Of a stretch of DNA of 24,248 bases, positions 8,058 to 24,248 are shown in pieces; within the stretch, counting starts at the first letter, position 1, and the number at the start of each line of letters is the position of its first letter. The stretch lies in NCBI GenBank assembly GCA_023254095.1, contig JALNLM010000008.1, forward strand, positions 42,067 through 66,314. Direction: 5' to 3'. The notes beneath the pieces are model-generated. The model was not told where the DNA came from and did no database searches. It worked only from the letters and a program-made list of their open reading frames with translations. This stretch comes from Candidatus Geocrenenecus huangii. GTDB taxonomy: Archaea; Thermoproteota; Nitrososphaeria_A; Caldarchaeales; Wolframiiraptoraceae. Position numbers and translations under genes: made by a program.

Positions 8058-9611
8058 CTAGGTAACTGTTCTAGGTGGTTGCGGGAGCTCTTTTATTCTA
8101 CTCTTTACTTCTTTAGGCCAAGAATCAAAATTGAAGCCATGTCTAGCTAGGAATCCCGCAGCCCACCTTGTTAATCCATGGCCTACGCATCCAGTCCATA
8201 TCTCCCTATTCTTAGCTTCTTTAATCTTGAATGCTTTAACGTAATAATCTCTATGGACGGTTGCAGCTGTTATCTCAAGCCACTCGGCTTTATCTCTCGC
8301 TCCTCTATAAGGTAGGTAAACTTCTATGTCGAGTGTGGGTATCTTGTCGAGGCTTGATACATCTATGAGACGTTTAGAAGCTTCTTCAGGGGATAAGAAG
8401 AAAGGTGCTCCAGCCACCAACCTCCACTCCATGTCTAGAATCTTATCGATTAACTCTATCGATAACTCTGTTACTTTATTTCTTATCTCAATTATTTCCT
8501 CGGGGCTTGCCAAGAAGACCATCTCCATCCTCCAGAACTCGTTTGTTCTGACAATACCCTCGACTCCTCCAGCCTCGTTTCTCCAAGTCCATCCTCCTAA
8601 GACATCGAAGACCTTGATAGGCAAGTCTTCTAGTCTAACAATCTCTTCTGAGAAATATTGGTAGAATGGTGGACACTGTACAGCTTCTAGAACATATCCA
8701 GGCTCTTCTAAAATATTCTTAAGTAAATCTTTCCTCAGCTCCCTCCTCAACATATATTCTCTCTTAAATTCTTCAAAAGCTGATGGATCTCTAGGCGGAG
8801 CGCAAACATAGAATAATCCTTCTGGCAAATGCTCTACGTAGGTTGAAAGTCTCCGGAATACATCGAAAGGCATTAGTCTCGGGAACATCCATTCCTGGAA
8901 GCCGAGCGGTTTCGCAACGTAGTCAATTATCAATTCTGACAACGTTCTAAGTAGAGCGGTCATGGGGCCTGTGAAGATCCATTGACCTCTACCCGGATAA
9001 CGTTTAGCCCATCCGAGTCTTTCCGCTTCAGCAGAGATCTCTCCATCGAATAGAAATGTTTTCTCTACACCTTTCCTCAAAAGTGTACCGAATGGTGCAA
9101 GCTTCTCAGCTTCTTCTACAACTTTTTCTTTCTCCCTAACTAATCTTATCGCTCTATCCACTATTCTATCACGTATATCGTGGTCGGATAGGTTTCTAAA
9201 GATCAAGACTAATGTATTGTCTTCTACTGATATTTCAGCAACACCTTTAAGCTTTTCTTCAGCAGATTGCCTATTTACATGCTCCCCCGAGATCTTGACT
9301 ACGAGCTTATCTACGAAGACCTCTCTCACACCGACCTTCATAGATTGTCCAAGCTTTTCCACCAACAGGTTCTTCAATCTGAGAAATGCATCATGAGCTC
9401 TAAGCCTTCCCCCAGATATTATCTTTACTCTAAGCCTTCTTCCTTCTCCACCATACTCTACTATGATTGCAGCCTCAGCAGCTTCCTTTATTTGGATACT
9501 TTCTCTAAATCTTTCATTTACTTCTCTAATTAACTCAGATACCTGAGACGCTATACTATTTACCTCTGTGGTTAACTCAAGGTATCCTTCTAGCTCGATT
9601 CTGAGCTCCAT
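8058..9611 (-). CDS. serS: Seryl-tRNA synthetase, type 2 (methanogen-type, Zn-dependent)
   Basis: RAHDA.LR N-terminal domain, YPGRGQW, QCPPFY, GWTWRNEAGG, R.NEF.R.E and IWTGC.GHGLTRW match methanogen-type SerRS, including Cys/Glu/Cys zinc ligands. ATG 9611 (MELRIELEGY) preferred over GTG 9644. Confidence 0.9.
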   Translation of the reverse strand: MELRIELEGYLELTTEVNSIASQVSELIREVNERFRESIQIKEAAEAAIIVEYGGEGRRLRVKIISGGRLRAHDAFLRLKNLLVEKLGQSMKVGVREVFVDKLVVKISGEHVNRQSAEEKLKGVAEISVEDNTLVLIFRNLSDHDIRDRIVDRAIRLVREKEKVVEEAEKLAPFGTLLRKGVEKTFLFDGEISAEAERLGWAKRYPGRGQWIFTGPMTALLRTLSELIIDYVAKPLGFQEWMFPRLMPFDVFRRLSTYVEHLPEGLFYVCAPPRDPSAFEEFKREYMLRRELRKDLLKNILEEPGYVLEAVQCPPFYQYFSEEIVRLEDLPIKVFDVLGGWTWRNEAGGVEGIVRTNEFWRMEMVFLASPEEIIEIRNKVTELSIELIDKILDMEWRLVAGAPFFLSPEEASKRLIDVSSLDKIPTLDIEVYLPYRGARDKAEWLEITAATVHRDYYVKAFKIKEAKNREIWTGCVGHGLTRWAAGFLARHGFNFDSWPKEVKSRIKELPQPPRTVT

Positions 9612-9854
9612 ACTACGCCGCGCCGTTCGAATAATCTCTATCACTCTTAAAATAAATATTTTTATAACTCGACATGCACAGGCTAGATAACTTCTCTTAA
9701 TGCTTTGAATATCTAAATTGTATTATAGTGGTTAGCCCGAATTTTTATCTAAAGTTTGACCCCCTCCTGCTCTAAGTAAGACAAAGAAAATCTCCATCTC
9801 TTCTGGTAGAGTCAACCTTTTAAACTCCCGTTACATCATCGAATTCGAGAGAAG

Positions 9855-10619: not shown

Positions 10620-10876
10620 CATTCTAGCCATCTATGAGCTCATAGACTACATAGAATCGAGAAATATTTATTAAAGTAATATCTCGGTAAATCTTAATCT
10701 TATAAACTTGTGGTTACCCTGACTTGGAAAGATAAATAAGTCTCCGTAGGCAGTAATAGAGATAGCTAATGGAAACTGGTTTGGTGAAGATTAATGGATT
10801 GTTGTCGGCCTACTCTTTTCTACAGTCTTTTATATGAGTCGTTATTCTTTCGGGCAGTCTTTCGAGAGGTGAAACT

Positions 10877-12049
10877 CTGAAAGCAGTTATTGTTGGAGTA
10901 GGAGCGGTAGGGTCAGTTATAGCTAAACATCTTGCGAAAAGCGAAGAAATTGAAGAATTAATACTTGCAGATAAATACTATGATAGAGCTAAGAAGGTAG
11001 CGTTAGAAACAGGTAGAAAGAAGGTAATTCCAAAGAGAGTAAATGCGATGAATATTGAGCAGGTAGTTAGAATCGCTAAGAATTCGGATGTATTGATCAA
11101 TGCGACTCTCCCGAGATTCAATATTCAGTTGATGAAAGCTTCTCTTAAATCTGGAGCACACTACATAGACCTAGCAAGTGACGATCCAGACCAGCAGCTG
11201 AAATTCCATGAAGCATTTAAAGAAGGAGGATTAACAGGAATAATCTGCATGGGTGAAGACCCAGGATTATCTAATCTTTTCGCTAGATATGCTGCAGACC
11301 AATTAACAAAAGTAGAATCTATAAAGATTAGAGACTGTGAAAGCAGTATAGTTAAAGGCATGAGAAGCCATCTAACACCGCTCTTCTCTAAAGAAGTATA
11401 CTTTGCAGAACTTTTTGAATCCGCATACATTTATCAGAATGGTAGATTTAAGAAGCTTCCACCTCTGAGCGGATATGAAGAATACGAGTTTCCATCACCT
11501 ATTAACAGGTTACCCGTATACGCTGTCTCACATGAAGAAGTCTTCACGCTTCCCAAATACATTAAAGGCATAAAATATGTAGACTTTAAGCTCTCCATAC
11601 CTAAAGATGTAGTCCAAATACTAAAAGTACTAAAAGTAATTGGTCTACTCAGTAAGAAGAAAGTTAAGGTCGACGGTCAGGAGGTTTCGCCTGCCAGGGT
11701 TCTCTACGCTGTTTTACCGAATCCTGAAGAGCTTGCTGGTAAAGTATCGGGATATGCTGGAATAGCCGTAGAAGTTAAAGGAAAGAAAGGTAGAAAACAT
11801 ATGAAGTACACTATCTATACGATGATGAGCCATGAAGAAGCATACGAGGAATTTGATACGACCGCTACAGCATACTTAACCGGGACACCTCCAGCCGCAC
11901 TCGCAATAATGCTAGGAGAAGAAGAGATCAAGGCTAGAGGAGTCTATCCACCTGAATATTTATCCCCAACACCCATACTTCAAAACCTAGCAGAATACGA
12001 TATTAGAATACATTCAATAGTAACAGAAGAAGCACCAATACATCTCTAA
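10877..12049 (+). CDS. Saccharopine dehydrogenase / carboxy(nor)spermidine dehydrogenase-fold NAD(P)-dependent oxidoreductase, paralogue 1 (CTG start)
   Basis: The frame is open upstream of ATG 11048 and encodes the Rossmann motif KAVIVGVGAVG starting right after CTG 10877; downstream HYIDLA, GEDPGLSNLFARY, HEEV and AYLTG.P motifs. Confidence 0.85.
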   Translation: MKAVIVGVGAVGSVIAKHLAKSEEIEELILADKYYDRAKKVALETGRKKVIPKRVNAMNIEQVVRIAKNSDVLINATLPRFNIQLMKASLKSGAHYIDLASDDPDQQLKFHEAFKEGGLTGIICMGEDPGLSNLFARYAADQLTKVESIKIRDCESSIVKGMRSHLTPLFSKEVYFAELFESAYIYQNGRFKKLPPLSGYEEYEFPSPINRLPVYAVSHEEVFTLPKYIKGIKYVDFKLSIPKDVVQILKVLKVIGLLSKKKVKVDGQEVSPARVLYAVLPNPEELAGKVSGYAGIAVEVKGKKGRKHMKYTIYTMMSHEEAYEEFDTTATAYLTGTPPAALAIMLGEEEIKARGVYPPEYLSPTPILQNLAEYDIRIHSIVTEEAPIHL

Positions 12050-12156
12050 ACAATAAAAATCAATCAACTAGGTAGTGATGCATGATCAAAGTTAAGCGGA
12101 CAAGCCTAAAATCTAATTAGATACTTTTAACCAAATCCTGTTTCGAGTGAGCTGGA

Positions 12157-12816
12157 ATGGAGTTAATAATCGACGAAAAGGTTAGGGAACGTTTTCCAGA
12201 CTTGTTAGTCTTGTTAGCGAGGTTAGACTCCGTGGAGGTTAGAAAGGTCTCAGAGGAGTTAGAGAAGTTTAAGCTGGAGGTTTACGAGCGTGTTAGGTCA
12301 AGGTACACGTTGGAAAGCTTGAAAGATGACCCGGTAGTCAAGTTATATAGGAACTTCTTTTGGAGGATAGGGATTGACCCCACAAAGATAAGACCTGCGT
12401 CCGAAGCCTTAATCCGGAGAATTCTCAGCGGTGAAGAACTTCCAACTATAAACACGCTTGTCGACTCTTACAATCTTGCCTCTGCTGAATCCGGTGTAGC
12501 TCTGGCGGCCTTTGACGCTGACAAGATCGAAGACAGTATGTTGATGAGGTTTGCAGAGCAGGGTGAATCTTTTCATGGAATAGGCATGAAAGAGCCTAGA
12601 ATCTTAAAAGGCGGAGAGCTAGTAATATCAGATTCTAAGAGGCTCATAGCGATCTACCCCTATCGTGACGCCGATTACAGCAAGGTGACTCTACAAACTA
12701 GAAATATCTATCTAATGACTTGCGGTATCCCCGGGTTATCCCCTCCGAAGCTAAGGGAAGCTGAAGAATTAGCAGTGAAATACATCATTAGGTTTTGCGG
12801 TGGTAGACGTGTCTGA
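12157..12816 (+). CDS. Stand-alone B3/4 domain protein (PheRS-beta editing-domain family)
   Basis: YR.FFWRIGIDPTKIRPASEALIRR, LP.IN.LVD.YNLAS, FDAD and YPYRD motifs; TATA-like TTTTAA at 12125-12130. Confidence 0.9.
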   Translation: MELIIDEKVRERFPDLLVLLARLDSVEVRKVSEELEKFKLEVYERVRSRYTLESLKDDPVVKLYRNFFWRIGIDPTKIRPASEALIRRILSGEELPTINTLVDSYNLASAESGVALAAFDADKIEDSMLMRFAEQGESFHGIGMKEPRILKGGELVISDSKRLIAIYPYRDADYSKVTLQTRNIYLMTCGIPGLSPPKLREAEELAVKYIIRFCGGRRV

Positions 12817-13112
12817 ACCTTAAATATCTCAACGAATTAAATTGCTCAGCATTAGCCTAGAGTCATCATCGACTTGGAAAGCAGGAAGGATTATCCACGC
12901 AAATATTTTTCACACTCGAAGAATTCGATTTTTATGATTGTGCCTACGACTTCGTAATAATTGTTGAGGAGAAGATAACAGTCGATCTATTAAACTCGAC
13001 GAATCTGACGAAAATCAATGAAAAATAGAGTGTTAACTTAATCAATCTACGGATAATACGTCACATAGATACGCAAAGCTAAAAAATAACATAGTAAAAC
13101 TCGTATAATGTA

Positions 13113-13187
13113 GGGGCCGTGGTCTAGCATGGCTATGATACGCGGCTTGGGCCCGCGTGGTCCTGGGTTCAAATCCCAGCGGCCCCA
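13113..13187 (+). tRNA. tRNA-Pro (anticodon TGG), intron-less, CCA not encoded
   Basis: Acceptor stem GGGGCCG/CGGCCCC with discriminator A; anticodon arm CGCGG-CTTGGGC-CCGCG; T arm CTGGG-TTCAAAT-CCCAG. Confidence 0.96.
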
Positions 13188-13427
13188 TTATATGGTGAGC
13201 TATGTTGGTAGTAGCATATGCTTCTTGAGATGGTTTTTCGAGCTGCCTATGCTTCCGCTATATCGTGAACCCAGCGAGTTCATAGAACCTCAACAAATCC
13301 CATACTCTAACGCATAGAATGGAAGAAGACTTAGACATATATGAAGATGTTGTAGAGGTAGAATATCTGAGTTGCTTCTTTACGTCACCCGATCTAGAAG
13401 ATATAGTAGAAGTAAGGGATGGTGGAG

Positions 13428-13583
13428 ATGGCTAGAGTCTTCAGGCAGGGAGACCTGATTCTGAGAGAATCTAAACTGCTCCCAAACATCTATAGGGGGA
13501 GGAGATATATTAATCGTGGATAGTGAGATAGGCATAACCTCAGACTCAGTGATAATTTTCCTAGCATATTACCCTCATCCTTA
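13428..13583 (+). pseudogene. Probable decayed fragment of a small RQGD-motif hypothetical protein
   Basis: SD-like GGTGG then ATG 13428 encoding MARVFRQGDLILRE...; stop at 13523, with a plausible continuation GDILIVDSEIG in a shifted frame from ~13501. Confidence 0.3.
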
Positions 13584-13709
13584 AGGAGTGGATGACATCA
13601 TATACAAAGCTTAGGAAGAGTGTTGACAGCTGCTTCGGCTTTATTCATGGGGGTCTTTATAGTATGTTGGTAAATGAAGTAAAACATATATTATTAATAT
13701 GTGTTTTAT

Positions 13710-13940
13710 ATGAAAACCATAACAGTCTCTGACGAAGTATATGAGGAGTTAGAGAGCATAAAAGGTAAACGATCTTTCTCCGAGGTCATAAACTTTCTCA
13801 TTAAGTCTAATGTGTCGCTAAGGATTGAGAAGATTTTATCATTATCGAATTACTTAACGGGTAGTGAGGATGAAATGCTAGAAGTAGTAAAGAGAATAAA
13901 GGCGGAGTTCAGAGTGAGAACGTATGAGGCTTCTCATTGA
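13710..13940 (+). CDS. vapB: VapB-type antitoxin (archaeal MKTITVS-DEVY family)
   Basis: MKTITVSDEVYEELESIKGKRSFSEVI pattern; overlaps the downstream PIN gene by 17 nt. Confidence 0.85.
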   Translation: MKTITVSDEVYEELESIKGKRSFSEVINFLIKSNVSLRIEKILSLSNYLTGSEDEMLEVVKRIKAEFRVRTYEASH

Positions 13941-14270
13941 CACGAGCTTCTTAATAGCTCTTAAGAAGGGAGATCTGAAAGCACGTAAAACTCTGGAATC
14001 TCTGAAAGATAAAGTGGAAGACATAGGAATAAGTAGATTAACAGAGTATTATCTTATGGTTGGAGCGCTTTATCTGTGGAGAAAATACGGATATGCAAGA
14101 GAACTTGCATGGCTTGACGAAGCTCTAAAATGGTAACGATATACGACGTTGATGATGAAGTCATTAGACTTGCATCCAAGATTAAGGTTGAAGCATTACT
14201 GAAAGGTGAGGAGATTTATGACGTCGACTTGATGATAGCGGTTTCCGGAACCCGGTCTCTAACAATATAG
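13924..14270 (+). pseudogene. vapC: VapC PIN-domain toxin, frameshifted and C-terminally truncated
   Basis: LLIDTSFLI and IS.LT..E-like motifs up to TAA 14134-14136. The PIN continuation VTIYDVDDEVIRLASKI...G..I.DVDLMIA is in the -1 frame (14133-14270) and ends without the usual L.T.D motif. Confidence 0.8.
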
Positions 14271-14399
14271 ACAGCAAATAAGTAGTCGTAACTATTGTTG
14301 ATTGTAATTTTAGAAAACTGTGTAGAAATTATATGTTGATTATAGATCTTAGGTTATGTTTTTGTAGAAGATGTTCTTGAATATTTTTAGGTGTTTGTA

Positions 14400-14612
14400 A
14401 TGTCTCAGAGGATATGTAGAATTGATTCAAATCTTAAGAGTTGTAATTGTACTTACGAGCCATGCCCTAGGAAAGGTATATGCTGTGAATGTCTACGCTA
14501 TCATTGGAGTCATCGTGAGCTTCCAGCATGTTTCTTTCCCCCTGAGATAGAGAGAACATACGATAGATCTTTGAAAACATTCATAAATTATTGGGGCAAG
14601 AAGATAAGGTAA
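14400..14612 (+). CDS. Small Cys-rich conserved protein (DUF6485-like, probable metal-binding)
   Basis: CNCTYEPCPRKGICCECLRYH...ELPACFF...E.TYDRS pattern with 8 Cys; SD-like AGGTG before ATG 14400. Confidence 0.75.
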   Translation: MSQRICRIDSNLKSCNCTYEPCPRKGICCECLRYHWSHRELPACFFPPEIERTYDRSLKTFINYWGKKIR

Positions 14613-14732
14613 CGGATATCCAGTGACCAAGTCTTCTAAGCGGATCGAGTAGATTTTAACCCGTGTAGCCGGCCAACCTGTCGTTATGAACCTATCTTCC
14701 TAAGCCATTATTTCAGGATACAAATTTTATTT

Positions 14733-15785
14733 TTAGATGTTCGGCATACTAGACTCTTTATTTGAGGTTAGATGTTGATAATATTCTCTTGGAGAGAGTT
14801 CAGGATAATCTCTTGATCGTGTTGCGATGCATCTCCTCATATCTAAGCATAGATGGCATTTAGATATGTAGCCGCCAACTTTTTCTTTATAGTTAAATTC
14901 TTTTACGACAAATTTGTAGAGTTCCCCTAGGTTCTTGTTTATCAACATTTCTAGTATCGGTTTATCATCCAATTCTATTCCTTCTTCTACTAGTTGGTCT
15001 AGTTTTCTTGCATCTCCAAGCGATATTCCTCCACAATATCCTGTCATATAGTTTCCATAGTTATCGATATGCGCATGCCATTCTCTGAGAAGACTTGACC
15101 TACAGTTTTCTCTGAAGAAGACGTGGGCAGGATATTTATTGAATAGGTGTCTAAGCTGGTAACATGCTCGACCCATAGGTATGAGCTCGACCATTTCTAA
15201 ACCCTCAACTCCATACATCCTTATGTAGTCTTCAAACTTGAGTAATCCTCTTAGATTCGCTTCTTTAAACTGTTTATAGAACTCGTATTGATATATCATT
15301 GTATTTATTCCGAAGACTTTGAAGCTTGATATGATGTTGTTTTCTATTCTCTCGAAGGGTATGTACTCGGTTATGAATGGGTTAACACTTACCAGTATCC
15401 CGTCGAGTCCGGCTTCTTTAAGTTCCCTCAACCTCTCAATAGTCTTCTCGGGATCCATGCACCAGAAAGAGTTTGTTTCAACAAAGGTCGAGGGTATACC
15501 ATGTTCTTTTGCGATTTCTACCGCTTCCAGAAGAAGAGAGTAGTTTAGGAATGGCTCGCCTCCTGTAAAATGTAACCCATAGTTAATTCCCACCCTAGAG
15601 ACTCCATATGGTGAAGGCATGATCTTGTCTGAGAGCTGGGAGAGTATCGTTTTTAAATCATTTATCGTTATCCAATCGTTACTCCATCTAGGCGAGCATG
15701 CATACATACAATGCCTGCATTCAGAGTTACATCTATATGAGAAGAGTATACCGCATGAGGTAGGCGTAGGTGGAATAATCTTCAT
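14733..15785 (-). CDS. Radical SAM protein of unknown function
   Basis: CxxxCxxC (RCNSECRHCMY), FTGGEPF, ETN and C-terminal Cys motifs (GYCGG, KCHLC). Confidence 0.9.
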   Translation of the reverse strand: MKIIPPTPTSCGILFSYRCNSECRHCMYACSPRWSNDWITINDLKTILSQLSDKIMPSPYGVSRVGINYGLHFTGGEPFLNYSLLLEAVEIAKEHGIPSTFVETNSFWCMDPEKTIERLRELKEAGLDGILVSVNPFITEYIPFERIENNIISSFKVFGINTMIYQYEFYKQFKEANLRGLLKFEDYIRMYGVEGLEMVELIPMGRACYQLRHLFNKYPAHVFFRENCRSSLLREWHAHIDNYGNYMTGYCGGISLGDARKLDQLVEEGIELDDKPILEMLINKNLGELYKFVVKEFNYKEKVGGYISKCHLCLDMRRCIATRSRDYPELSPREYYQHLTSNKESSMPNI

Positions 15786-15891
15786 GATACAGTGCCCAAT
15801 CTTGTATGGTCGAAGCGTCGTTATGAGTTTTATTAAGGTCTAAGGTGGCCAGAAGATTCTAGTTAATGAAAGTGTTATAAGAATATTGCAT

Positions 15892-17109
15892 CTATAAGGG
15901 TTCCCTGAGCTCCGATATTCTTCTTTCTTCAAATATCAATGGTAAGTTATGTTTCGTCAATTCTTTAATGAATGGCTGGGGGTTAAGCTGCTCGGGGAAG
16001 AGTAACCCTTTCCCTCTTAATTCCCCTCTAAGTAGTAGGCTGACTCCTATGGCTGCAGGTAAACCCACGAGGTATGAAGTACCGTTAACTCCTACTCTGT
16101 CATACGCTTCTTTATGCGAGATATATGTGAAAATCTTCTGCGATAGAAAGGCATCATTTTTTCTTCCTTTGACTTCTACTTCAATGCCGGCGTATCCCTG
16201 AATGTCTACTAAATCTATTGGTTGGGGTAAAACCTCGACGACCACGTCAAAAGGTGATACCTGCACTCCCTTGACGTTAACTTTCTCTCTAGATAGTAGC
16301 TTCATCTTCCACAGAGCTCTAATGATCTCTGCAGATAATCCATCATAATTATACCAGAATGATATTCTTCTTGCTTTCTTTGGAAGGAATACCGAGAGAG
16401 TCCAGACTTCCGGATGTTCTTTTAGATAGATTTTCTTAACTTTTACTGGATCAGGGAAAACGTGTTCTTGGCAGATGCTTAGAGGCTCAGCCTTCTTGAA
16501 TACTCCGTCTTCATAGTATATAGCTGGAGCGATACTTGACAATAATAATTCTTCTCTACTCCATAATGGTACAATGATAAACCTATTATCTTCAACCGTG
16601 TCCGCGTCTCTTATCACCACCTCATCTAATTCATCGAAATTCTCTACTAAGTATCTTGCAAAGATATTTGAGAGGCCAGGGTCTTCTCCTAACCCCAGTA
16701 TCCCAGTCAACTCATTCTTTCTCCATTCAGAATCTCTCTGTAGATGTAGCTCAACCATTTCCTTAAATCTGGAGCCTTCTTCTATCCATAATTCTTCTCC
16801 ACCGGTTAGACTTATAAAGTTGCATTTATTCCTCAAGCAGTTTTCTATAAGGTTTAGATTCAAGGAATAATGTGCTGCGTTAACTAGGATGCTCGCATTC
16901 TTCATTAATTTACTTAGTTGGTCTGAATTTCTCGCATCAACTTTATGTATAGATATCTTTTCCCTCCCGTATTTTTCTTCGAGATGTTTAAGATTCTTTT
17001 CAGATATATCTACTGCTATGATCTGGTCTACTAACGGGTCTGGGATGAGGGTGGAGACGATAACGTGGCCGACCCCACCCACACCAATAACCATGACGTT
17101 TCCAGACAA
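15892..17109 (-). CDS. Saccharopine/carboxyspermidine dehydrogenase-fold oxidoreductase, paralogue 2
   Basis: VIGVGGVG Rossmann motif, GEDPGLSNIFARY, HPEV and SYLVG.P motifs. TTG 17109 preferred as start because GGGAGAGGGTG lies just upstream (ORF track extends to 17139). Confidence 0.85.
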   Translation of the reverse strand: MSGNVMVIGVGGVGHVIVSTLIPDPLVDQIIAVDISEKNLKHLEEKYGREKISIHKVDARNSDQLSKLMKNASILVNAAHYSLNLNLIENCLRNKCNFISLTGGEELWIEEGSRFKEMVELHLQRDSEWRKNELTGILGLGEDPGLSNIFARYLVENFDELDEVVIRDADTVEDNRFIIVPLWSREELLLSSIAPAIYYEDGVFKKAEPLSICQEHVFPDPVKVKKIYLKEHPEVWTLSVFLPKKARRISFWYNYDGLSAEIIRALWKMKLLSREKVNVKGVQVSPFDVVVEVLPQPIDLVDIQGYAGIEVEVKGRKNDAFLSQKIFTYISHKEAYDRVGVNGTSYLVGLPAAIGVSLLLRGELRGKGLLFPEQLNPQPFIKELTKHNLPLIFEERRISELREPL

Positions 17110-17236
17110 AGAACACCCTCTCCCACTCAAGCCTAACAATTAGTAATACATGCATAAATTCTTTAATTATGAATAAAAATAAAGAATAGATGAAATATGC
17201 AAAAATTAGGCTTAACTAGAATGAATAATATAAGAT

Positions 17237-18394
17237 CTACCATTTTTTCTCGATTCTTTCTCCAATCACTATATTTTTGCGGCTTAGGTTTTCTAGAAAC
17301 TTTTCTGCAGGTATACATACTTCAGGAGGCTTGACCCCCTTAAATCTTATCTCTTCTTTAACCATCATTTGAGCAGCGATTGATGCGGGGACTCCTGTAA
17401 GATAGCTGGAGGCCGATGTATTCCACTCCTTCTTTGAAGTCGACAATGCATACATTGAGTAGATGATATCTCTACCATCTTTCTTACCTATAATCTTAGT
17501 AAAGATGCATGCAGCATCATCTATCGTGTCTCTAGTTGGATCAAACATGCATCTCCTTAGGATATGAGTTGTGAAATCTTTTATGGAGAGCTCTAAATTA
17601 TCTATAGTTATATGCTGGTCAGAGAAGAATCCGAGCTTCTTGAGAATATCAATCATGTCAAAATCGTAATTTATCTTAAAGTCTACATATCTTAATCCTT
17701 TACCAATGTATTTAGGGATGGTTGCAAGCTCTGAGTGAAGACTGAAACAAACTTTCACTCTCCCAACAGGTTCTGGAAACTCGAACTCTTCTACTCCACT
17801 AAGTGGCGGCACCTCTTCACACTTTCCATCCTTAAAGATTACAGCGTTCCTCGTCCATTCATCCATCATGGTTTTTACAGAAAATTTGAATATGGCTCTC
17901 TGCGGAGGCCTTAAATCTCTATCTCCATCTCTAATCAAGATAGAGTCTACTTCATCGAGTCTATCTGAAACATATCTTGCCAAGATGTTGCTTATGCCAG
18001 GATCTTCTCCGCAACCGATTAGTATAGATGCTTCGGCTCTCCTAGCATCATCGTCCAAGTCCAGCTGCTTCAAAGTCATATAGTATAATCCACCTAGATC
18101 GATGAGTCTAGCTTTCGCGTTTATAGCCGCCCTCGTCGCCTCCAAGTTATACTCGAACCATGTTGAATTGATTGTTACATCATATTTCTTCATCTCTTCT
18201 GCGAGGAGATCCACTCTTCTAACATCTATATACCTAAATGATAATCTACCATCGTTGATCGATTTAATGAATCTGAGAGCTCGGTCTCTATCTATCTCTC
18301 CTATGACGACTTCTTCTACACTGTCGCTTGATAGTAGGTCTCTAACTATTACTGAGCCTATCGCCCCAGCCCCTCCCAATACTAGAAACTTCAT
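17237..18394 (-). CDS. Saccharopine/carboxyspermidine dehydrogenase-fold oxidoreductase, paralogue 3
   Basis: VLGGAGAIG, IDLGGLY, GCGEDPGISNILARY, HSEL and SYLTG.P motifs; SD GGTGAGGT upstream of the ATG. Confidence 0.88.
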   Translation of the reverse strand: MKFLVLGGAGAIGSVIVRDLLSSDSVEEVVIGEIDRDRALRFIKSINDGRLSFRYIDVRRVDLLAEEMKKYDVTINSTWFEYNLEATRAAINAKARLIDLGGLYYMTLKQLDLDDDARRAEASILIGCGEDPGISNILARYVSDRLDEVDSILIRDGDRDLRPPQRAIFKFSVKTMMDEWTRNAVIFKDGKCEEVPPLSGVEEFEFPEPVGRVKVCFSLHSELATIPKYIGKGLRYVDFKINYDFDMIDILKKLGFFSDQHITIDNLELSIKDFTTHILRRCMFDPTRDTIDDAACIFTKIIGKKDGRDIIYSMYALSTSKKEWNTSASSYLTGVPASIAAQMMVKEEIRFKGVKPPEVCIPAEKFLENLSRKNIVIGERIEKKW

Positions 18395-18424
18395 ATGTTC
18401 TACCTCACCGCTACATGTTTTCTT

Positions 18425-19486
18425 CTAGATGGGTACTATGAGGCTTGAGTTCTTTCTCCATCCTATCTCGACAAAGTCTCCGGGATGGTGCATCCTCTCT
18501 AGTTCTGCTGATCCATGTTTATGGACTATGAATGTATTGCCTTGTACGTCCACTCGATACTCTATATATGAGCCCTTGAATATTATTGATTGTACTGTAC
18601 CCTTAAACAGGTTATCTACATCGTGTAGCTTATCGCTTATCTCAACCATCTCCGGTCTAACCATCACCGCCACCCTGCCTTTTGTTAAAGACTCAGTACA
18701 GTAGATTGTTCCAAGGCTTGTATCTACTAGACCGTTTTCTCGAACTTCACCCTCAATGAGGTTTACGGCTTCGCCTATGAAGGATGCGACGAACGTATTG
18801 GATGGCCTATAGTAGATCTCTAAAGGCGTACCCACTTGCTGTACTTTTCCATCTTTCATTATAGCTATCCTATCAGACATAGTCATCGCCTCGGTCTGGT
18901 CATGTGTAACATATATGAATGTTGTCTTGACTCTTCTCTGAATATTCTTCAACTCGACCATCATATGCTGTCTTATCTTTAAGTCTAGTGCTCCTAGCGG
19001 TTCATCTAGGAGGAGGACTTCAGGCTCAATGACGAGTGCACGAGCTAGGGCGACACGCTGCTGCTGACCGCCGCTAAGCTGGTTTACCCTCCTATTTTCT
19101 AATCCTTCAAGCTTTACGATTTCTAGAATCTTCTTTACTTGCCTCCTTATTTCCTCTTTTTGAACCTTTCTCATTTTTAATCCGAAAGCTATGTTTTCGA
19201 ATACATTCATGTGTGGGAATAATGCAAGATGCTGGAAGACCATTCCTATGTTTCTCTTATGTGTGGGCACGTCCGTGACGTCTTCACCATATATTTTGAC
19301 TATTCCTTCATCGGGTTCTTCCAGTCCAGCGATTATCCTCAAGGTTGTTGTTTTACCACATCCTGAAGGTCCTAAGAGAGAGAAGAACTCATTTTCCCTA
19401 ATCTTCAAGTTAACATGGTCTACTGCCACTACGTTCCCAAATCTTTTAACTATGTTCTCCAACTCTACAGAGAATACGTCATTCAT
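18425..19486 (-). CDS. potA: Polyamine-type ABC transporter ATP-binding subunit
   Basis: Walker A GPSGCGKT, LSGGQQQRVALARAL, LLLDEPLGALD, YVTHDQ.EA and C-terminal TOBE domain; ATGA overlap with potC. Confidence 0.9.
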   Translation of the reverse strand: MNDVFSVELENIVKRFGNVVAVDHVNLKIRENEFFSLLGPSGCGKTTTLRIIAGLEEPDEGIVKIYGEDVTDVPTHKRNIGMVFQHLALFPHMNVFENIAFGLKMRKVQKEEIRRQVKKILEIVKLEGLENRRVNQLSGGQQQRVALARALVIEPEVLLLDEPLGALDLKIRQHMMVELKNIQRRVKTTFIYVTHDQTEAMTMSDRIAIMKDGKVQQVGTPLEIYYRPSNTFVASFIGEAVNLIEGEVRENGLVDTSLGTIYCTESLTKGRVAVMVRPEMVEISDKLHDVDNLFKGTVQSIIFKGSYIEYRVDVQGNTFIVHKHGSAELERMHHPGDFVEIGWRKNSSLIVPI

Positions 19487-20262
19487 CTCTCCAACCTCCT
19501 CTCAGCCCTCAATCTGAAAACTGCGAATAGGAAGGAGATAGATAAAGCAAAGGATGATAGGGAGTTCAGTTCTGGTGAGACCCCTCCCCTAGCGGCTGAA
19601 GACCATACTATCAATGGGAGTGTCTTGAATCCTGGACCCGTGGTAAAGAGCGTTTTTATCAAGTCGTCGAAGCTCAACGTGAATGCTAGGAGACCCGCTG
19701 CGAGTATTGCAGGATAGAGTGTCGGTAGCGTTATCCTGAAGAAGGTCTGGAACTCGTTGGCTCCCAATGTTCTCGCTGCTTCTTCAATTGATTTATCGTA
19801 TCCCGCCATCCTCGCTCGCATCACTATTGTAACGAATGAAACATCGAATGCTATGTGACCTATTATGACGGTTACCGGGCCGAGAGGTATATTTAAGAAA
19901 ATATACATTATTAGTAGTGAGAGAGCTTCCGCAATCTCTGGTATAATCACAGGTATAAGTATTAAGCTTTCGAGAATGCTTTTTCCACTAAAACTATATC
20001 TTGTAACAGCCATGGCCATCATTAATCCTAGGACCAATGAGACGATCGTTACCACGGCTCCAACCCAGAAGGAATTGAATAAGGCTTTCCAGACTTCAGG
20101 ATTATTGATAACCTTCTCATACCATCTAAATGAGAAATTCGTGAAAACCCCTATAGACTTAGATTCATTGAATGAGAAAACCACCATTACAATTATTGGA
20201 GAGTAGAGGAATAGGAAAACCAAGATAGTGAAGATCTTAAGAAATGGAGTTGTCCCCTTCAT
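19483..20262 (-). CDS. potC: Polyamine-type ABC transporter permease
   Basis: FLYSPI...FSFN, FS.RWY, EEAARTLGA (EAA loop), FTLSFDD and TLP motifs; TAATG overlap with potB. Confidence 0.88.
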   Translation of the reverse strand: MKGTTPFLKIFTILVFLFLYSPIIVMVVFSFNESKSIGVFTNFSFRWYEKVINNPEVWKALFNSFWVGAVVTIVSLVLGLMMAMAVTRYSFSGKSILESLILIPVIIPEIAEALSLLIMYIFLNIPLGPVTVIIGHIAFDVSFVTIVMRARMAGYDKSIEEAARTLGANEFQTFFRITLPTLYPAILAAGLLAFTLSFDDLIKTLFTTGPGFKTLPLIVWSSAARGGVSPELNSLSSFALSISFLFAVFRLRAERRLER

Positions 20263-21104
20263 TAAAATGCTAGCCCCCTCTCCCCTATCTTCCTAACGTA
20301 AGCTATAACTAATGATAAGATAAAAGCGATAAACAGCATTGAGAGCGCTGAGCCTATCCACCAATGTCTTGCACCCATAAAGAATTCGTAGATCAAGTTG
20401 CCGACCATGTAGTTGTTAGGTCCTCCGACCAACTCGGGTATAACGAACTCGCCTACAGTCGGTATAAAGACTAGTAGGAACCCAGCCAATATCCCAGGCA
20501 TGCTTAGAGGAAGAGTTACTTTTAAGAATGTTCTAACAGGTCCTGCGCCAAGAGTAGATGCAGCTTCTAGTAAGGTCTTATCGAGTTTCTCGAGATTCGC
20601 GTATAGCGGTAGAACCATCATTACTAAGTAGTCATAAACCATTACCAAGATGACGGCAGCGTCTGTATACATTATCTTGATCGGTGAATCGATTAATCCA
20701 AGCGAAGTTAGCAATGTGTTCAAGAAGCTTCTTTCATCGAGTATGCTCATCATCGCATACGTTCTTAGAAGGAAGCTAACCCAGAAAGGTATTATGAACA
20801 ATATTATGAAGAGGTCCTTATATTTTTTGATTTTAAAAGAAATATAGTAGGCTACAGGGTATCCTATGAGGAGACACAATAGTACAGTAACCCCTGCAAA
20901 ATAGAGTGAGCGAAGGAATATTCCCATGGCCCCGGTCCAGCTTAATACCCTAGAGTAATGTACTAGAGAAGGTGTAAAAACTATCTGACGATTAATATTA
21001 ATCATGTCGAAACTGTATAACCCAACTATAAAGAATGGAGCGTAAAACCAGATTGCCAAGAATAGCAGTGGCGGAGTGAGAAGAAATGATATCTTCACAA
21101 CCAC
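20262..21104 (-). CDS. potB: Polyamine-type ABC transporter permease (true start may be further upstream, at ACG 21146)
   Basis: IGYPVAY, PFWVSFLLRTYA, LLEAASTLGA, TLPLSMPG and P..GEFVIP.LVGG motifs. Confidence 0.88.
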   Translation of the reverse strand: MVVKISFLLTPPLLFLAIWFYAPFFIVGLYSFDMININRQIVFTPSLVHYSRVLSWTGAMGIFLRSLYFAGVTVLLCLLIGYPVAYYISFKIKKYKDLFIILFIIPFWVSFLLRTYAMMSILDERSFLNTLLTSLGLIDSPIKIMYTDAAVILVMVYDYLVMMVLPLYANLEKLDKTLLEAASTLGAGPVRTFLKVTLPLSMPGILAGFLLVFIPTVGEFVIPELVGGPNNYMVGNLIYEFFMGARHWWIGSALSMLFIAFILSLVIAYVRKIGERGLAF

Positions 21105-21179
21105 GTTTCTTCTTATATGTTTTAGTAAAGTATCGCTGAAGCCCGTCTACTCCCCCCTCCTAGAGAGCATATGGAGGCT

Positions 21180-22352
21180 TTACGCAGCCATTAGCTCAAG
21201 CCAGTATTCCGCCCTCTTCGCTCTTTCTTCTGGTGTGAAGGGTCTCGTCCAGTAAAGCTTATCCAATAACTCATCAGGAGTAAATATCACAGGATCGTTA
21301 CGTAATTCTTCAGGCACGTAATCTTTACCAGTAGGGAATGGATACTTAACAGTAATAGTGCAGATAGCCGATATCACGGGGTCGAGTATGAAGTTTATGA
21401 ATGCGTGGGCCGCCTCAATGTTTTTCGCCCCCTTCGGGATCACGAAATTATCAGCCCAGGCCAGAGCCCCCTCCTCTGGAACAGTGTAAGAAATGTATTC
21501 GAGATTTTTGGTTATCGTTATCTCCCTCTCATCTGAAGCATATATTATCCCAGCTATATCTCCATTGTATGCGTGACTGATCAAGAATCTCCCAGCTTCT
21601 AGGCCCGCCATGTATTCTTCTGTTGACGCATAACCTGCAAGATAAGGCTTCTGCTTCTTCAATAATTCTACAGCCTCTCTAAGATCTTCATCTTTAGTAC
21701 TCGTCGGGTCTCTTCCAAGATATATCAGTGCTGCTCCAAATGTCTCGATAGTATCTGTATGCATTGTTATCTTTCCTTTGTATTTTTCGAGGTGGCGGTC
21801 GACCTCGAAGACGTCCGCCCACGCTGTAACCTCTGGTGAAACCTCTTGACTATTCCATCCAAGACCTGTCGTCCCATAACTGTATATTACACTGTATTTG
21901 TTTCCAGGGTCGTAATATGGATTCTTAAACCTCTCAGGTACATACTTAAAGTTAGGTATCTTCTTCAAGTCTATCGGTTCTAAGACTCCTAGATTAGCTA
22001 ATTCTTGAAGAGGTGAATCTGATACTACTGCCAGGTCATATCCGCTGGTTCCCGTTTGAAGTTTAGCGACCACCTCATCTAAAGATTCAAATGTATCGTA
22101 AACTATGCTTACACCATTTTCCCTAGCCCACCAGTCAACGATGTTTCTATTGATGTAATATGTCCAGTTGTAGATGTATAGGTTTGGCTCAAGCTCAACT
22201 TTTTCTAACTTTATCTCCTTAGAGAGGGCTTCTACTTCTTTTTTAAGAGATTCAACTTCACTCTGACGTGAAATATATCCTCCGACTCCTCCAATCGCCA
22301 ATCCTAAAACTCCGCTTACCATTATCTTTAATACGTCTCTTCTGTCAACCAT
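21180..22352 (-). CDS. potD: Polyamine-type ABC substrate-binding protein (PotD/PotF family) with twin-arginine signal/anchor
   Basis: MVDRRDVLK Tat-like motif plus hydrophobic helix; LYIYNW..YI, GYDL, DPGNKYSV.Y..GTTG, YNGD, PEEG...WADN and AHAFINF motifs. Confidence 0.88.
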   Translation of the reverse strand: MVDRRDVLKIMVSGVLGLAIGGVGGYISRQSEVESLKKEVEALSKEIKLEKVELEPNLYIYNWTYYINRNIVDWWARENGVSIVYDTFESLDEVVAKLQTGTSGYDLAVVSDSPLQELANLGVLEPIDLKKIPNFKYVPERFKNPYYDPGNKYSVIYSYGTTGLGWNSQEVSPEVTAWADVFEVDRHLEKYKGKITMHTDTIETFGAALIYLGRDPTSTKDEDLREAVELLKKQKPYLAGYASTEEYMAGLEAGRFLISHAYNGDIAGIIYASDEREITITKNLEYISYTVPEEGALAWADNFVIPKGAKNIEAAHAFINFILDPVISAICTITVKYPFPTGKDYVPEELRNDPVIFTPDELLDKLYWTRPFTPEERAKRAEYWLELMAA

Positions 22353-22735
22353 GCCAGATATTTCTCATAGAAAATGATATATAAAATTTTAAAATATGGA
22401 AACGAATATAGTAACTCAAGAACTGTTTTTCTCCCGATTTAATATATGTGGTTTCGAGAGCAGGAAGACGCGCTTAGAATTGGCTACTCCTATTTTTTGT
22501 AACAGTAATGGAGACTCTGAGTTTTGGAGGGTAACGTTTATGGGTTTAATAGATTAATAGATTTTGTCATCAGTTGACTTACCAATTATTTCTTAAGGTT
22601 GAGAAACAGTAACGAATTAATAATGTCCTGCCTACCCAATAGCATTTAATACGTGTTTTCAAAGCTTGTCTCCGAACAGCTAATACATGAAGCAATATTA
22701 AAAAAGATTAAGTAAAGGCTATCAGAGATAGGTTT

Positions 22736-24226
22736 ATGATGAGTCTTAAGTGCCTTTCAGAAAATTATGGTAAACTTCTAAACTATATAGATGGGGAATA
22801 TGTTGAAGCTGATTATGTTGGGTTATTGAAATCGTATGATCCTGGGATAGGTAGAGTTATCGCTGAGGTACCCGTCTCATCTAGCAGAGATGTTGAGGTA
22901 GCTGTTTCATCTGCATTGGAGGCTTTCAAGAAGTGGGCTCAGATACCCATAATCGAGAGGATGAGATATCTTATCAGGTTGAGGAGCCTGATCGAAGAGA
23001 AAAGTGAAGAACTAGCTTTAATGATTGCCCAGAATGTTGGTAAGACTATTAGAGAAGGTCGCGGAGAAGTTCAGAGAACTATTGAAGCAGTAGATTCTGC
23101 ACTAGGTTTGCCTCACTTATTCATGTCGGTGAGAAAGCTCATGAACGTTGCTGGAGGAGATCCTGAAATAGATATGGAGATGGTTAGAGAGCCTCTAGGA
23201 GTATTCGCAATAATATCCCCATTCAATTTCCCAGTAATGATCCCTATGTGGTTTATACCGATGGCGATTACACTTGGAAACACTGTAATAGTTAAGCCAA
23301 GCGAGCTAGACCCTGTACCCATAACGTATTTTATGAAACTGTTTAAAGATGCAGGATACCCTAACGGAGTAGTAAACCTAGTCAATGGAGATGCGTCTAC
23401 AAGCCAGCATCTAATAGAGCATAAAGATATAGTTGGAGTAGCATTCGTGGGATCCAGCTCCGTAGCTGAGAAAATATACTCGGCAGCATCTTCTAGAGGA
23501 AAGAGAGTATTGTGCCAGGCTGGAGCAAAGAACCCCGTTGTATTAATGCCTGACGCAACACCAGACCAATCAGTGGAAAACATAGTTACGGGATTCTTTG
23601 ATATGGCTGGTCAGAGATGTCTTGCACCAGGTCTACTAATCACTGTAGGGGAAGCATATGATAAATTCGTAGAAATGATTGTTAATAGAGTTAGAAGGAT
23701 TAAAGTTGGATACCAGCTTCTAAAAGATACGGACGTCGGTCCTCTAGCGTCTCAAAAAGGCAGACATAGAGTTGTGGGGATGATTGAGAAAGCATTAGAG
23801 GAGGGTGCAGAAACTCTTATCGATGGGAGAGAATATAAAATCGATGAAAAATACCAGTCAGGATTCTATCTTGGACCCACAATATTAGACAATGTATCTC
23901 CAGACATGGAGATAGCTAGAGAGGAAGTCTTCGGTCCAGTCATGCCTATAGTTAGAGCCTCAAGCTTCGAGGAAGCACTCGAGATAGCGAATAGCAGAAT
24001 GTATGGAAATACTGGGACGATATATACCTCGAGCGGTAAGTATGCTAGAGAGTTTGCTAGGAGGATGAATGCTGGAAACATAGCGGTAAACATGGCTGTA
24101 GCCCAGCCGAACCAATTCTTCCCATTCCCGGGAAGAAAGAAAAGCTTCTACGGAGTACTACATGGACAGACTGATGCATTAGACTTCTTCACAGACAGGA
24201 AAGTAATAATGCAGAGATGGTGGTAG
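22736..24226 (+). CDS. mmsA: CoA-acylating (methyl)malonate-semialdehyde dehydrogenase (ALDH family 6)
   Basis: PFNFP.MIP.W..P.A...GN, KPSE, FVGS, GAKN, GQRC (catalytic Cys), EE.FGPV, YGN and SFYG.LHGQ motifs diagnostic of the MMSDH/IolA subfamily. Confidence 0.85.
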   Translation: MMSLKCLSENYGKLLNYIDGEYVEADYVGLLKSYDPGIGRVIAEVPVSSSRDVEVAVSSALEAFKKWAQIPIIERMRYLIRLRSLIEEKSEELALMIAQNVGKTIREGRGEVQRTIEAVDSALGLPHLFMSVRKLMNVAGGDPEIDMEMVREPLGVFAIISPFNFPVMIPMWFIPMAITLGNTVIVKPSELDPVPITYFMKLFKDAGYPNGVVNLVNGDASTSQHLIEHKDIVGVAFVGSSSVAEKIYSAASSRGKRVLCQAGAKNPVVLMPDATPDQSVENIVTGFFDMAGQRCLAPGLLITVGEAYDKFVEMIVNRVRRIKVGYQLLKDTDVGPLASQKGRHRVVGMIEKALEEGAETLIDGREYKIDEKYQSGFYLGPTILDNVSPDMEIAREEVFGPVMPIVRASSFEEALEIANSRMYGNTGTIYTSSGKYAREFARRMNAGNIAVNMAVAQPNQFFPFPGRKKSFYGVLHGQTDALDFFTDRKVIMQRWW

Positions 24227-24248
24227 GAGTCGCAGCCAACATCATAAA

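Follow-up and report, generated by a model that had tools for sequence, protein, structure and literature searches.

We analyzed a 24,248-nt window of the Candidatus Geocrenenecus huangii genome (Caldarchaeales), in which the genes of a polyamine-type importer, potDBCA, lead directly into genes for two enzymes of the saccharopine dehydrogenase (SDH) fold, SDH1 and SDH2. That these genes form a catabolic amine module is well supported; the substrate, the bond that is cut, the direction of the reaction and the flow of products to a nearby aldehyde dehydrogenase (ALDH) of the methylmalonate-semialdehyde dehydrogenase (MMSDH) type are what we infer. We consider the chances evenly balanced that the window is one part of a Caldarchaeales supercluster for the uptake and catabolism of polyamines or other amines, with an oxidative pathway through SDH1. 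The gene set fits catabolism far better than synthesis, because importer, SDH1-type gene, one or more class-III aminotransferases and aldehyde oxidizers recur together, the cofactor site is of the NAD type, a decarboxylase is lacking and a separate SpeE is present. The original prediction, made from the sequence of this DNA, had proposed a polyamine-degrading system. Its observations were confirmed, and its interpretation is partly supported. All positions are given in window numbering; L numbers denote loci of relatives, and C numbers denote contigs of this genome.

Importer, dehydrogenases and aldehyde dehydrogenase

The cluster starts with potD (21180-22352, minus strand; PF13416/PF13343), which encodes a substrate-binding protein of the PotD/PotF family. 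It is followed on the same strand by the permease genes potB (20262-21104) and potC (19483-20262), both with PF00528 (NF007044 PotB, 4.3e-61; NF007047 PotC, 2.5e-63; each below the cut-off), and by the ATPase gene potA (18425-19486; PF00005 and TOBE_2). PotA passes the cut-off of the polyamine-transporter subfamily TIGR01187 (372.4 bits versus 355.6 bits). SDH1 (17237-18394, minus strand) lies 30 bp 3' of potA, and SDH2 (15892-17139, minus strand) lies 97 bp 3' of SDH1. The MMSDH-type ALDH gene (22736-24226, plus strand) points away from potD, and 383 bp separate the two genes. A third SDH-fold gene, SDH3 (10877-12049, plus strand), is located 3.8 kb from SDH2. All genes named in the original prediction were thus found in their places. 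It had also described the window as free of a carboxyspermidine decarboxylase, a flavin amine oxidase and an aminotransferase; indeed, no decarboxylase, oxidase of this type or aminotransferase is encoded in the window, which ends with the contig 22 bp past the ALDH stop codon.

The gene order is real and not an assembly artifact, since an 8,305-nt contig from an independent metagenome carries the same arrangement; over positions 15955-24248, it shows one 6-nt gap and 17 differences relative to the window. A second metagenome contig bridges potD and the MMSDH-type ALDH gene. In one metagenome contig (run X9), 6 nt are missing at position 17172, in the SDH1-SDH2 spacer, and other runs contain a second variant of SDH1 and potA (~90% identical), which points to cluster diversity at the population level. 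Metatranscriptome X17 contigs, which cannot show transcription or cotranscription, match parts of potD and potA exactly, while none covers SDH1, SDH2 or most of the MMSDH-type gene; we draw no conclusion from them.

In the PDB, PotD was closest to the structures of Pseudomonas SpuD/SpuE and E. coli PotF, with SpuD (7.9e-51) and PotF variants (7.6e-49) as best matches. Its NCBIfam scores were 170 bits for PotF and 145 bits for PotD, both below the cut-offs. We compared its binding pocket, in PotF numbering, with the residue list of PMC8666671 (partial text). W37, D247, E185, D278, S85, S87 and R254 are kept. S38T, F276W, A182D and L348T are changes to the residue found in PotD or towards it, and W244Y is a further replacement. 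According to the same partial text, positions 276, 182 and 348 encode the preference for putrescine versus spermidine. The residues present here are Trp, Asp and Thr; the first two are PotD-like, and the Thr at position 348 is polar. By residue comparison, the pocket is predicted to be of the polyamine type and spermidine-like at the specificity positions, in line with the polyamine importer that had been proposed.

SDH1, SDH2 and SDH3 share the Sacchrp_dh_NADP and Sacchrp_dh_C architecture (PF03435 and PF16653, all above the Pfam cut-offs). They are 28-34% identical to each other and are the only PF16653 genes in this 1.61-Mb, 96%-complete genome. The same two domains are found in carboxyspermidine dehydrogenase (CASDH), carboxynorspermidine dehydrogenase (CANSDH) and CAPADH, including B. 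fragilis 8DEB and Synechocystis Slr0049. The B. fragilis enzyme matched SDH3 with 3.8e-50 and SDH2 with 3.4e-39; 2AXQ and AASS chains were weak matches of SDH2. The best PDB match of SDH1 was the L-lysine 6-dehydrogenase PH1688 of Pyrococcus horikoshii (3ABI; 5.1e-22, 81.6 bits), followed by 8DEB (1.5e-15). No homospermidine synthase chain in the PDB matched any of the three paralogues at E ≤ 0.001. Against the equivalog model NF043000 (cut-off, 800 bits), the three scored 154.2, 136.9 and 72.8 bits, and the ESM Atlas returned generic "saccharopine dehydrogenase family" clusters only and no structure.

Active-site residues were compared in the numbering of B. fragilis CASDH (BfCASDH), as given in PMC10413350, PMC10599626 and PMC13683441 (partial texts). 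His228, the relay Glu230, Ser144, Asp140 and Asp166 are kept in SDH1, SDH2 and SDH3. Glu188 and Glu/Asp229 position the substrates in CASDH/CAPADH enzymes (PMC10413350, partial text). SDH3 has both E188 and E229 and thus the full CAPADH/CASDH set (E188, H-E-E at positions 228-230, S144, D140 and D166). SDH1 has Glu188 but Ser229 (H-S-E), and SDH2 has Ser188 and Pro229 (H-P-E). In PH1688, whose active-site residues were read from the alignment alone, R-S-M stands at the place of H-S-E; SDH1 is therefore not simply a lysine dehydrogenase. In line with this, 3ABI is described as being without the triad of the CASDH group (PMC10413350, partial text). The amine-recognition loop proposed in a 2026 paper (PMC13683441, partial text) is 8 residues shorter and lacks N105 in SDH3, is absent from SDH1, and is acidic in SDH2, with 13 additional residues.

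The NADPH-specific B. fragilis enzyme binds the 2'-phosphate via Ser34, Thr36 and Lys39 (PMC10413350, partial text). SDH2 and SDH3 carry Asp at position 34, where SDH1 has Glu, and position 36 is occupied by Tyr in SDH3 and by Asp in SDH1. In Rossmann folds, an acidic residue at the 2'-phosphate site indicates NAD, which dehydrogenases with an oxidative, catabolic role usually employ. Since position 34 is acidic in all three paralogues, they are predicted to use NAD, and SDH1 in particular is a predicted NAD-dependent enzyme. This agrees with the NAD(P)-linked oxidative enzymes of the original prediction.

The ALDH scored 444.2 bits against TIGR01722, just below the cut-off of 448.5 bits, and all ten of its PDB matches at E ≤ 1e-80 were MMSDHs (best match, 1T90; 2.8e-108). 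Its QRC motif aligns with ERC of 1T90, and its AGAKN aligns with TGAKN, in place of ELGGK. An Arg before the catalytic Cys, together with AGAKN in place of the general-base Glu motif, is what we take to be the mark of CoA-acylating MMSDHs, as opposed to hydrolytic ALDHs. The PDB matches support the MMSDH identity given to it before, and from its sequence the enzyme is predicted to be of the CoA-acylating (methyl)malonate-semialdehyde dehydrogenase type.

Conservation of the cluster and its partners

In all five same-genus genomes compared, potDBCA is directly followed by SDH1, the 30-bp spacing between potA and SDH1 is kept, and a class-III aminotransferase gene is present ≤10 kb from the cluster. 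The two nearest SDH1 homologues, both of Candidatus Geocrenenecus, are 91% and 79% identical. A gene for an aldehyde:ferredoxin oxidoreductase (AOR) was detected at the cluster in two of the five. SDH2 adjoins SDH1 here and in L031, is separated from it by the AOR gene in L032 (order, SDH2-AOR-SDH1) and L076, and is located elsewhere in L054 and L055. An MMSDH-type gene lies within 6 kb of the cluster in three of six genus genomes, this one included. The ALDH copy at the L075 cluster is 87% identical to that of the window, and L035 has a true MMSDH gene (493.9 bits versus the cut-off of 448.5 bits) 3 kb from potD.

The sister family shows a similar linkage: in seven of its eight genomes, an SDH1-type gene was found ≤10 kb from a pot-like importer, and the eighth is represented by a 7.7-kb contig on which, of the importer, the ATPase gene alone is present. 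An SDH3-like gene (45-50% identity) lies ≤10 kb from the pot/SDH1-like pair in 6/8 genomes. Alongside it are genes for an M20 deacylase, for as many as four class-III aminotransferases and for either an ALDH or a molybdenum aldehyde oxidoreductase.

Such partners are also encoded elsewhere in the genome under study, which contains nine class-III aminotransferase genes, three ALDH genes and seven AOR-like genes. Contig C14 carries genes for an AOR, a HemL-like aminotransferase, an OTCase and a second pot-like importer; contig C26 carries an ADI-like gene, an M20 deacylase gene and another aminotransferase gene. In the closest relative, synteny with the window stops 93 bp upstream of potD, and AOR, HemL-like aminotransferase and OTCase genes are found there instead. 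Since the partner genes sit on C14 and C26 here, the cluster was split by the assembly. We conclude that the aminotransferases and AOR belong to the system. A pathway free of aminotransferases is thus not upheld: no partner accompanies SDH1-type genes more constantly than the class-III aminotransferases, which are found, in this genome, on C14 and C26. As a side observation, the genome's top-scoring ALDH gene (552 bits; G000 C2:44521-45912) contains one in-frame TGA, which may stem from an error in sequencing, from recoding or from inactivation of the gene.

No carboxyspermidine decarboxylase gene (nspC type) was detected in the 96%-complete genome, the best TIGR01047 match reaching 37.3 bits (cut-off, 409 bits). 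The sole AR-fold decarboxylase scored 283.1 bits against LysA (cut-off, 297.9 bits) and is also similar to DokD (ornithine/lysine decarboxylase). Canonical biosynthesis by CASDH and the corresponding decarboxylase was therefore rejected. Furthermore, SpeE and AdoMetDC genes are located side by side on contig C20, so spermidine synthesis is independent of the SDH paralogues. Both results speak against the canonical biosynthetic role.

To place the paralogues, a rapid, preliminary maximum-likelihood tree was computed from 54 Thermoproteota proteins, with SH-aLRT support only. SDH2, SDH3 and the SDH3-like genes of the sister family fell into a CASDH-like clade, and the SDH1 types fell into a PH1688-like clade, in which the two pot-linked SDH1 groups (genus and sister family) were not sisters. 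The SDH2 clade (n = 5) comprised same-genus members only; SDH2 appears to be a genus-restricted CASDH-like paralogue with H-P-E and without E188. All 16 Thermoproteota loci outside the window with E188 and H-S-E have at least one class-III aminotransferase gene ≤10 kb away, in contrast to none of 11 same-clade loci with other motifs (three with Y-S-G, two with H-P-E and six without the His).

The Y-S-G type is located in conserved housekeeping synteny. In L036, L037 and L043, from other Thermoproteota families, 36-38% identical homologues with Y-S-G for H-S-E and Tyr for D166 adjoin a gene for an AP_endonuc_2 TIM barrel; these homologues probably have a different, non-dehydrogenase or altered function. 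L050 (G069) may be another amine-handling cluster, as an SDH-fold gene with H-P-E stands between an importer of the ABC type with an AOR on one side and a non-pyrrolysine MtmB-family methyltransferase with a second importer on the other. In L066, a distant Thermoproteota locus, genes for an ALDH, a GABA-AT-like enzyme, SpeE, a HemL-like aminotransferase, an arginase-family protein, a permease and DAO are followed by an SDH1-type gene and genes for an AOR, a permease, an omega-aminotransferase and an MMSDH.

Among the best 120 database homologues of SDH1, 82 have E…H-S-E, and 38 have Y-S-G or Y-S-S. A species scan (one genome per species; alignment of five sequences as the query) returned 80 loci, which overlap the loci of relatives compared above, so that the counts are not additive; E…H-S-E was present in 79/79 loci with a readable central gene. 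Leaving out nine Caldarchaeales loci resulted in 70 loci with 22 taxon labels, including Acidobacteriota, Bathyarchaeia, several DPANN groups, Methanoperedens and Thermoplasmata. Within 10 kb, a class-III aminotransferase gene was present at 53 of the 70 loci, a gene for an ALDH/AOR-type enzyme at 46, both together at 43 and a pot-like importer at 20. An aminotransferase or aldehyde enzyme gene was found ≤400 bp away at 46/70 loci, and 19 of the 22 labels have at least one aminotransferase-bearing locus. At the 34 loci with ≥8 kb on both sides, an aminotransferase was present in 27, an aldehyde enzyme in 26 and an importer in 15 cases. For comparison, we estimate from nine aminotransferase genes in 1.6 Mb that a random 21-kb span contains one with a chance of ~11%. 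Recurrent clusters of pot, SDH-fold and aldehyde dehydrogenase genes, for which the original prediction had called for a neighborhood analysis, were thus found in the genus, in the sister family and in many distant lineages. On DPANN contigs (L100-L152; Woesearchaeota, Aenigmatarchaeota, Micrarchaeota, Nanoarchaeota and Iainarchaeum), aminotransferase and ALDH genes are directly beside the SDH1-type gene, which is notable given the reduced genomes of these archaea.

SDH3, the radical SAM gene and other features of the window

The SDH3 gene lies in a synteny of its own. The order PCNA-SDH3-tRNA-Pro is kept in six of seven relatives (three sister-genus genomes and three congeners), and a pot-like importer accompanies SDH3 in just one congener and in the sister family. 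In that congener (L056), SDH3 comes after genes for an M20 deacylase, an aminotransferase and a second pot-like importer. Fold and position of this third paralogue were as predicted; its membership in the system was not borne out, and we consider SDH3 only loosely linked to it. The predicted start of SDH3 at position 10877 was confirmed, though the list of open reading frames (ORFs) opens the frame at 11048: a CTG codon is positioned 4 nt past a GAGGTGA Shine-Dalgarno sequence (10868-10879). CTG is the start codon in all five same-genus copies compared (the window and four relatives), and three sister-genus copies have TTG; it looks like a conserved noncanonical start codon.

Between SDH3 and tRNA-Pro, positions 12157-12816 encode a 219-aa protein with a stand-alone B3/4 domain, a relative of the editing domain of PheRS beta. 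In six relatives, tRNA-Pro is directly 3' of SDH3, and a paralogue of the B3/4 protein with 40% identity is encoded on contig C5. The ~1.5 kb past tRNA-Pro (13190-14730) are poor in ORFs, with none ≥80 aa, and have no notable repeats. The only stretch with a relative is 14346-14597 (~254 bp), in which a small ORF (14391-14612, plus strand) is located; its counterpart, 83% identical at the nucleotide level, adjoins the radical SAM gene of L058. This region may be the remnant of an element integrated at the tRNA gene.

The radical SAM gene (14733-15785, minus strand; PF04055) lies 106 bp 3' of SDH2 and weakly matches the YydG family (61.6 bits versus a cut-off of 300 bits). No homologue was found ≤8 kb from SDH2 in the closest relative, and in L058 a 71% identical homologue is located beside SDH3/tRNA-Pro. 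A role in the system was rejected on these grounds. While the original prediction was right about a codirectional neighbor, the gene is probably not part of the system.

The window has further archaeal content, encoding PCNA, an archaeal-type SerRS (8058-9644), PGK and GAPDH (4206-5228). The SerRS has the tRNA_bind_4 N-terminal domain, a form first known from methanogens, and the GAPDH, whose gene adjoins that of PGK, is of the Gp_dh_N/Gp_dh_C type. An Rfam scan of the window yielded tRNA-Pro as the only match.

Possible pathway and rival explanations

In the pathway that we consider, PotDBCA would import a spermidine-like polyamine. SDH1, presumably cotranscribed with the importer, would act as an NAD-dependent relative of CASDH/CAPADH that runs their chemistry oxidatively: it would dehydrogenate the imported amine at a C-N bond, and hydrolysis of the resulting imine would yield an amino-aldehyde and an amine. 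SDH2 may carry out the same reaction on a different amine. That the paralogues act on successive C-N bonds, as the original prediction suggested, is conjectural. The aldehydes would be oxidized by the neighboring MMSDH-type ALDH or by the AOR encoded with the clusters of relatives, and the class-III aminotransferases would take off terminal amino groups. C3 units would reach acetyl-CoA via malonate semialdehyde and MMSDH; such units are known to leave via beta-alanine through the joint action of an omega-aminotransferase and MMSDH. The kept catalytic residues of CASDH suggest the same imine chemistry, acting oxidatively on a secondary amine, and the spermidine-like pocket predicted for PotD fits a substrate with an internal nitrogen.

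Several known systems resemble parts of this pathway. CASDH, CANSDH and CAPADH share the catalytic residues but are NADPH-specific, reductive and paired with a decarboxylase, whereas the paralogues here have Asp or Glu at the 2'-phosphate site and the genome has no decarboxylase orthologue. Their partners also differ, SDH1-type genes being accompanied by importers, aminotransferases and aldehyde-oxidizing enzymes. PH1688 is an NAD-dependent amine dehydrogenase that shares the fold and also ends its beta-2 strand with an acidic residue, but the match to SDH1 is weak. For oxidative action of the fold on a secondary amine, glutamate-forming saccharopine dehydrogenase of lysine catabolism is the established example, its reaction being pulled by an ALDH, aminoadipate-semialdehyde dehydrogenase; the enzyme differs in its active-site residues, its amino acid substrate and its lack of linkage to an importer. 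Bacterial polyamine catabolism (PatA/PatD and Puu in E. coli, Spu/Pau in Pseudomonas and the FAD/heme spermidine dehydrogenase SpdH) likewise combines a PotD/F-type importer, class-III aminotransferases, aminoaldehyde dehydrogenases and MMSDH as C3 exit. There, however, the C-N bond is cleaved by a flavin or heme dehydrogenase or an oxidase, or cleavage is bypassed via gamma-glutamylation, and we know of no SDH-fold enzyme in these routes. Bacterial homospermidine synthase oxidizes a C-N bond of putrescine or spermidine with NAD+ (PMC4725965, partial text). It belongs to the same superfamily as the paralogues, but it holds NAD as a prosthetic group and passes the aldehyde equivalent on instead of releasing it.

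Several observations weigh against this oxidative pathway. In PotD, position 39 is Tyr instead of D39, which is ≥96% conserved among PotF homologues (PMC8666671, partial text). The MMSDH linkage claimed in the original prediction was found, within 6 kb, in only three of the six genus genomes, this one counted, and the cluster of the closest relative has no adjoining MMSDH gene. OTCase and ADI-like genes flank the cluster in several congeners, so that arginine, agmatine or ornithine are possible substrates. Among the distant loci, 17/70 are without an aminotransferase ≤10 kb away, and at 7/34 loci with full flanks both kinds of partner, aminotransferase and aldehyde enzyme, are lacking; Bathyarchaeia account for six of these seven. 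The counts overstate independence because many loci are kin (18 are from Acidobacteriota), and ALDH matches near 30% identity are generic ALDHs, which does not imply MMSDH identity. Finally, the direction assigned to the H-S-E type is read from context and cofactor site only, and the closest solved structure to SDH1 is that of a lysine 6-dehydrogenase, a kinship which fits deamination of a primary amine as well as cleavage of a secondary one.

Accordingly, SDH1 could be an NAD-dependent omega-amine dehydrogenase of the lysine-6-dehydrogenase kind, which would convert a terminal primary amine to an aldehyde and ammonia without cutting a secondary amine. Putrescine (also if derived from agmatine), cadaverine, lysine or ornithine would be the substrates, and such a pathway would still be catabolic and still need ALDHs and aminotransferases. 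Apart from the PH1688 match, several database homologues of SDH1 are automatically named lysine 6-dehydrogenase, the two aminotransferases and two ALDHs at Acidobacteriota and DPANN loci correspond to the classical set for converting a diamine to a dicarboxylate, and the OTCase and ADI-like neighbors in congeners would fit a feed from arginine or agmatine to putrescine. We nevertheless regard this as rather unlikely: the identity to PH1688 is low, and its R-S-M contrasts with H-S-E, the base and relay of CASDH, in SDH1 and all 79 aligned homologues. Moreover, deamination would duplicate the aminotransferase, the most constant neighbor of the SDH1 type, and the specificity positions of PotD are spermidine-like rather than putrescine-like.

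Alternatively, the paralogues, above all SDH3, could be reductive, biosynthetic enzymes that join an amine, endogenous or imported via the pot genes, to an aldehyde (e.g., aspartate semialdehyde), which would yield a carboxy-polyamine, an unusual polyamine or an opine-like compound. SDH3 keeps every named substrate and catalytic residue of CAPADH/CASDH, matches 8DEB well (3.8e-50) and lies beside PCNA without a pot cluster in three sister genera. A class-III aminotransferase beside CANSDH has a biosynthetic precedent in Vibrio, and in one sister-family genome an AdoMetDC gene is located between the two SDH genes. Such a role is unlikely, since the 96%-complete genome contains no nspC/CAPADC orthologue and only the LysA/DokD-like AR-fold decarboxylase, an acidic residue of the NAD type occupies the NADPH site, and the amine-recognition loop of SDH3 is shortened by 8 residues, without N105. 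Furthermore, the NCBIfam scores of 154, 137 and 73 bits are far below the cut-off of 800, the SpeE route is already present, and the ALDH and AOR partners would have no role. It is very improbable that the genes are unrelated neighbors, with an importer for polyamine salvage and dehydrogenases and MMSDH serving other pathways, e.g., valine or beta-alanine metabolism. The positions of the MMSDH, radical SAM and SDH3 genes are indeed not kept in the closest relative, the cluster of which borders variable regions with toxin-antitoxin genes, but the 30-bp potA-SDH1 spacing is kept in 5/5 congeners, and the linkage recurs across many lineages.

Returning to the oxidative pathway, a broader proposal, which we put forward as possible though doubtful, is that the whole branch with E188 and H-S-E consists of oxygen-independent, NAD-dependent polyamine dehydrogenases. 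Together with class-III aminotransferases and ALDHs or AOR, they would form a widespread anaerobic route to acetyl-CoA or succinate, from DPANN and Caldarchaeales to Acidobacteriota. The chemistry of CASDH and homospermidine synthase would be reversed, a spermidine-like secondary amine yielding a diamine and an amino-aldehyde. Polyamines are abundant and rich in nitrogen. To our knowledge, all described routes for cleavage of their internal C-N bonds use O2-dependent oxidases or a flavin/heme dehydrogenase, and we know of no route by which strict anaerobes and archaea break them down.

Our literature search found no paper on an SDH-fold enzyme in polyamine breakdown or on this cluster; the supplementary PF16653 similarity network of PMC10599626 may already separate the group. 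The available part of a paper on a cultivated Caldarchaeales relative (PMC9246946) does not mention polyamines, and that of PMC10547907 lists spermidine/putrescine transporters in proviral regions only. If SDH1-type enzymes cleave polyamines with NAD+, this would be a new reaction class for a fold that has until now been associated with the synthesis of polyamines and lysine. Such an activity would also provide a function for a large family that is automatically named "saccharopine dehydrogenase" or "lysine 6-dehydrogenase" and would explain why the module is kept in very small DPANN genomes and in soil Acidobacteriota alike.

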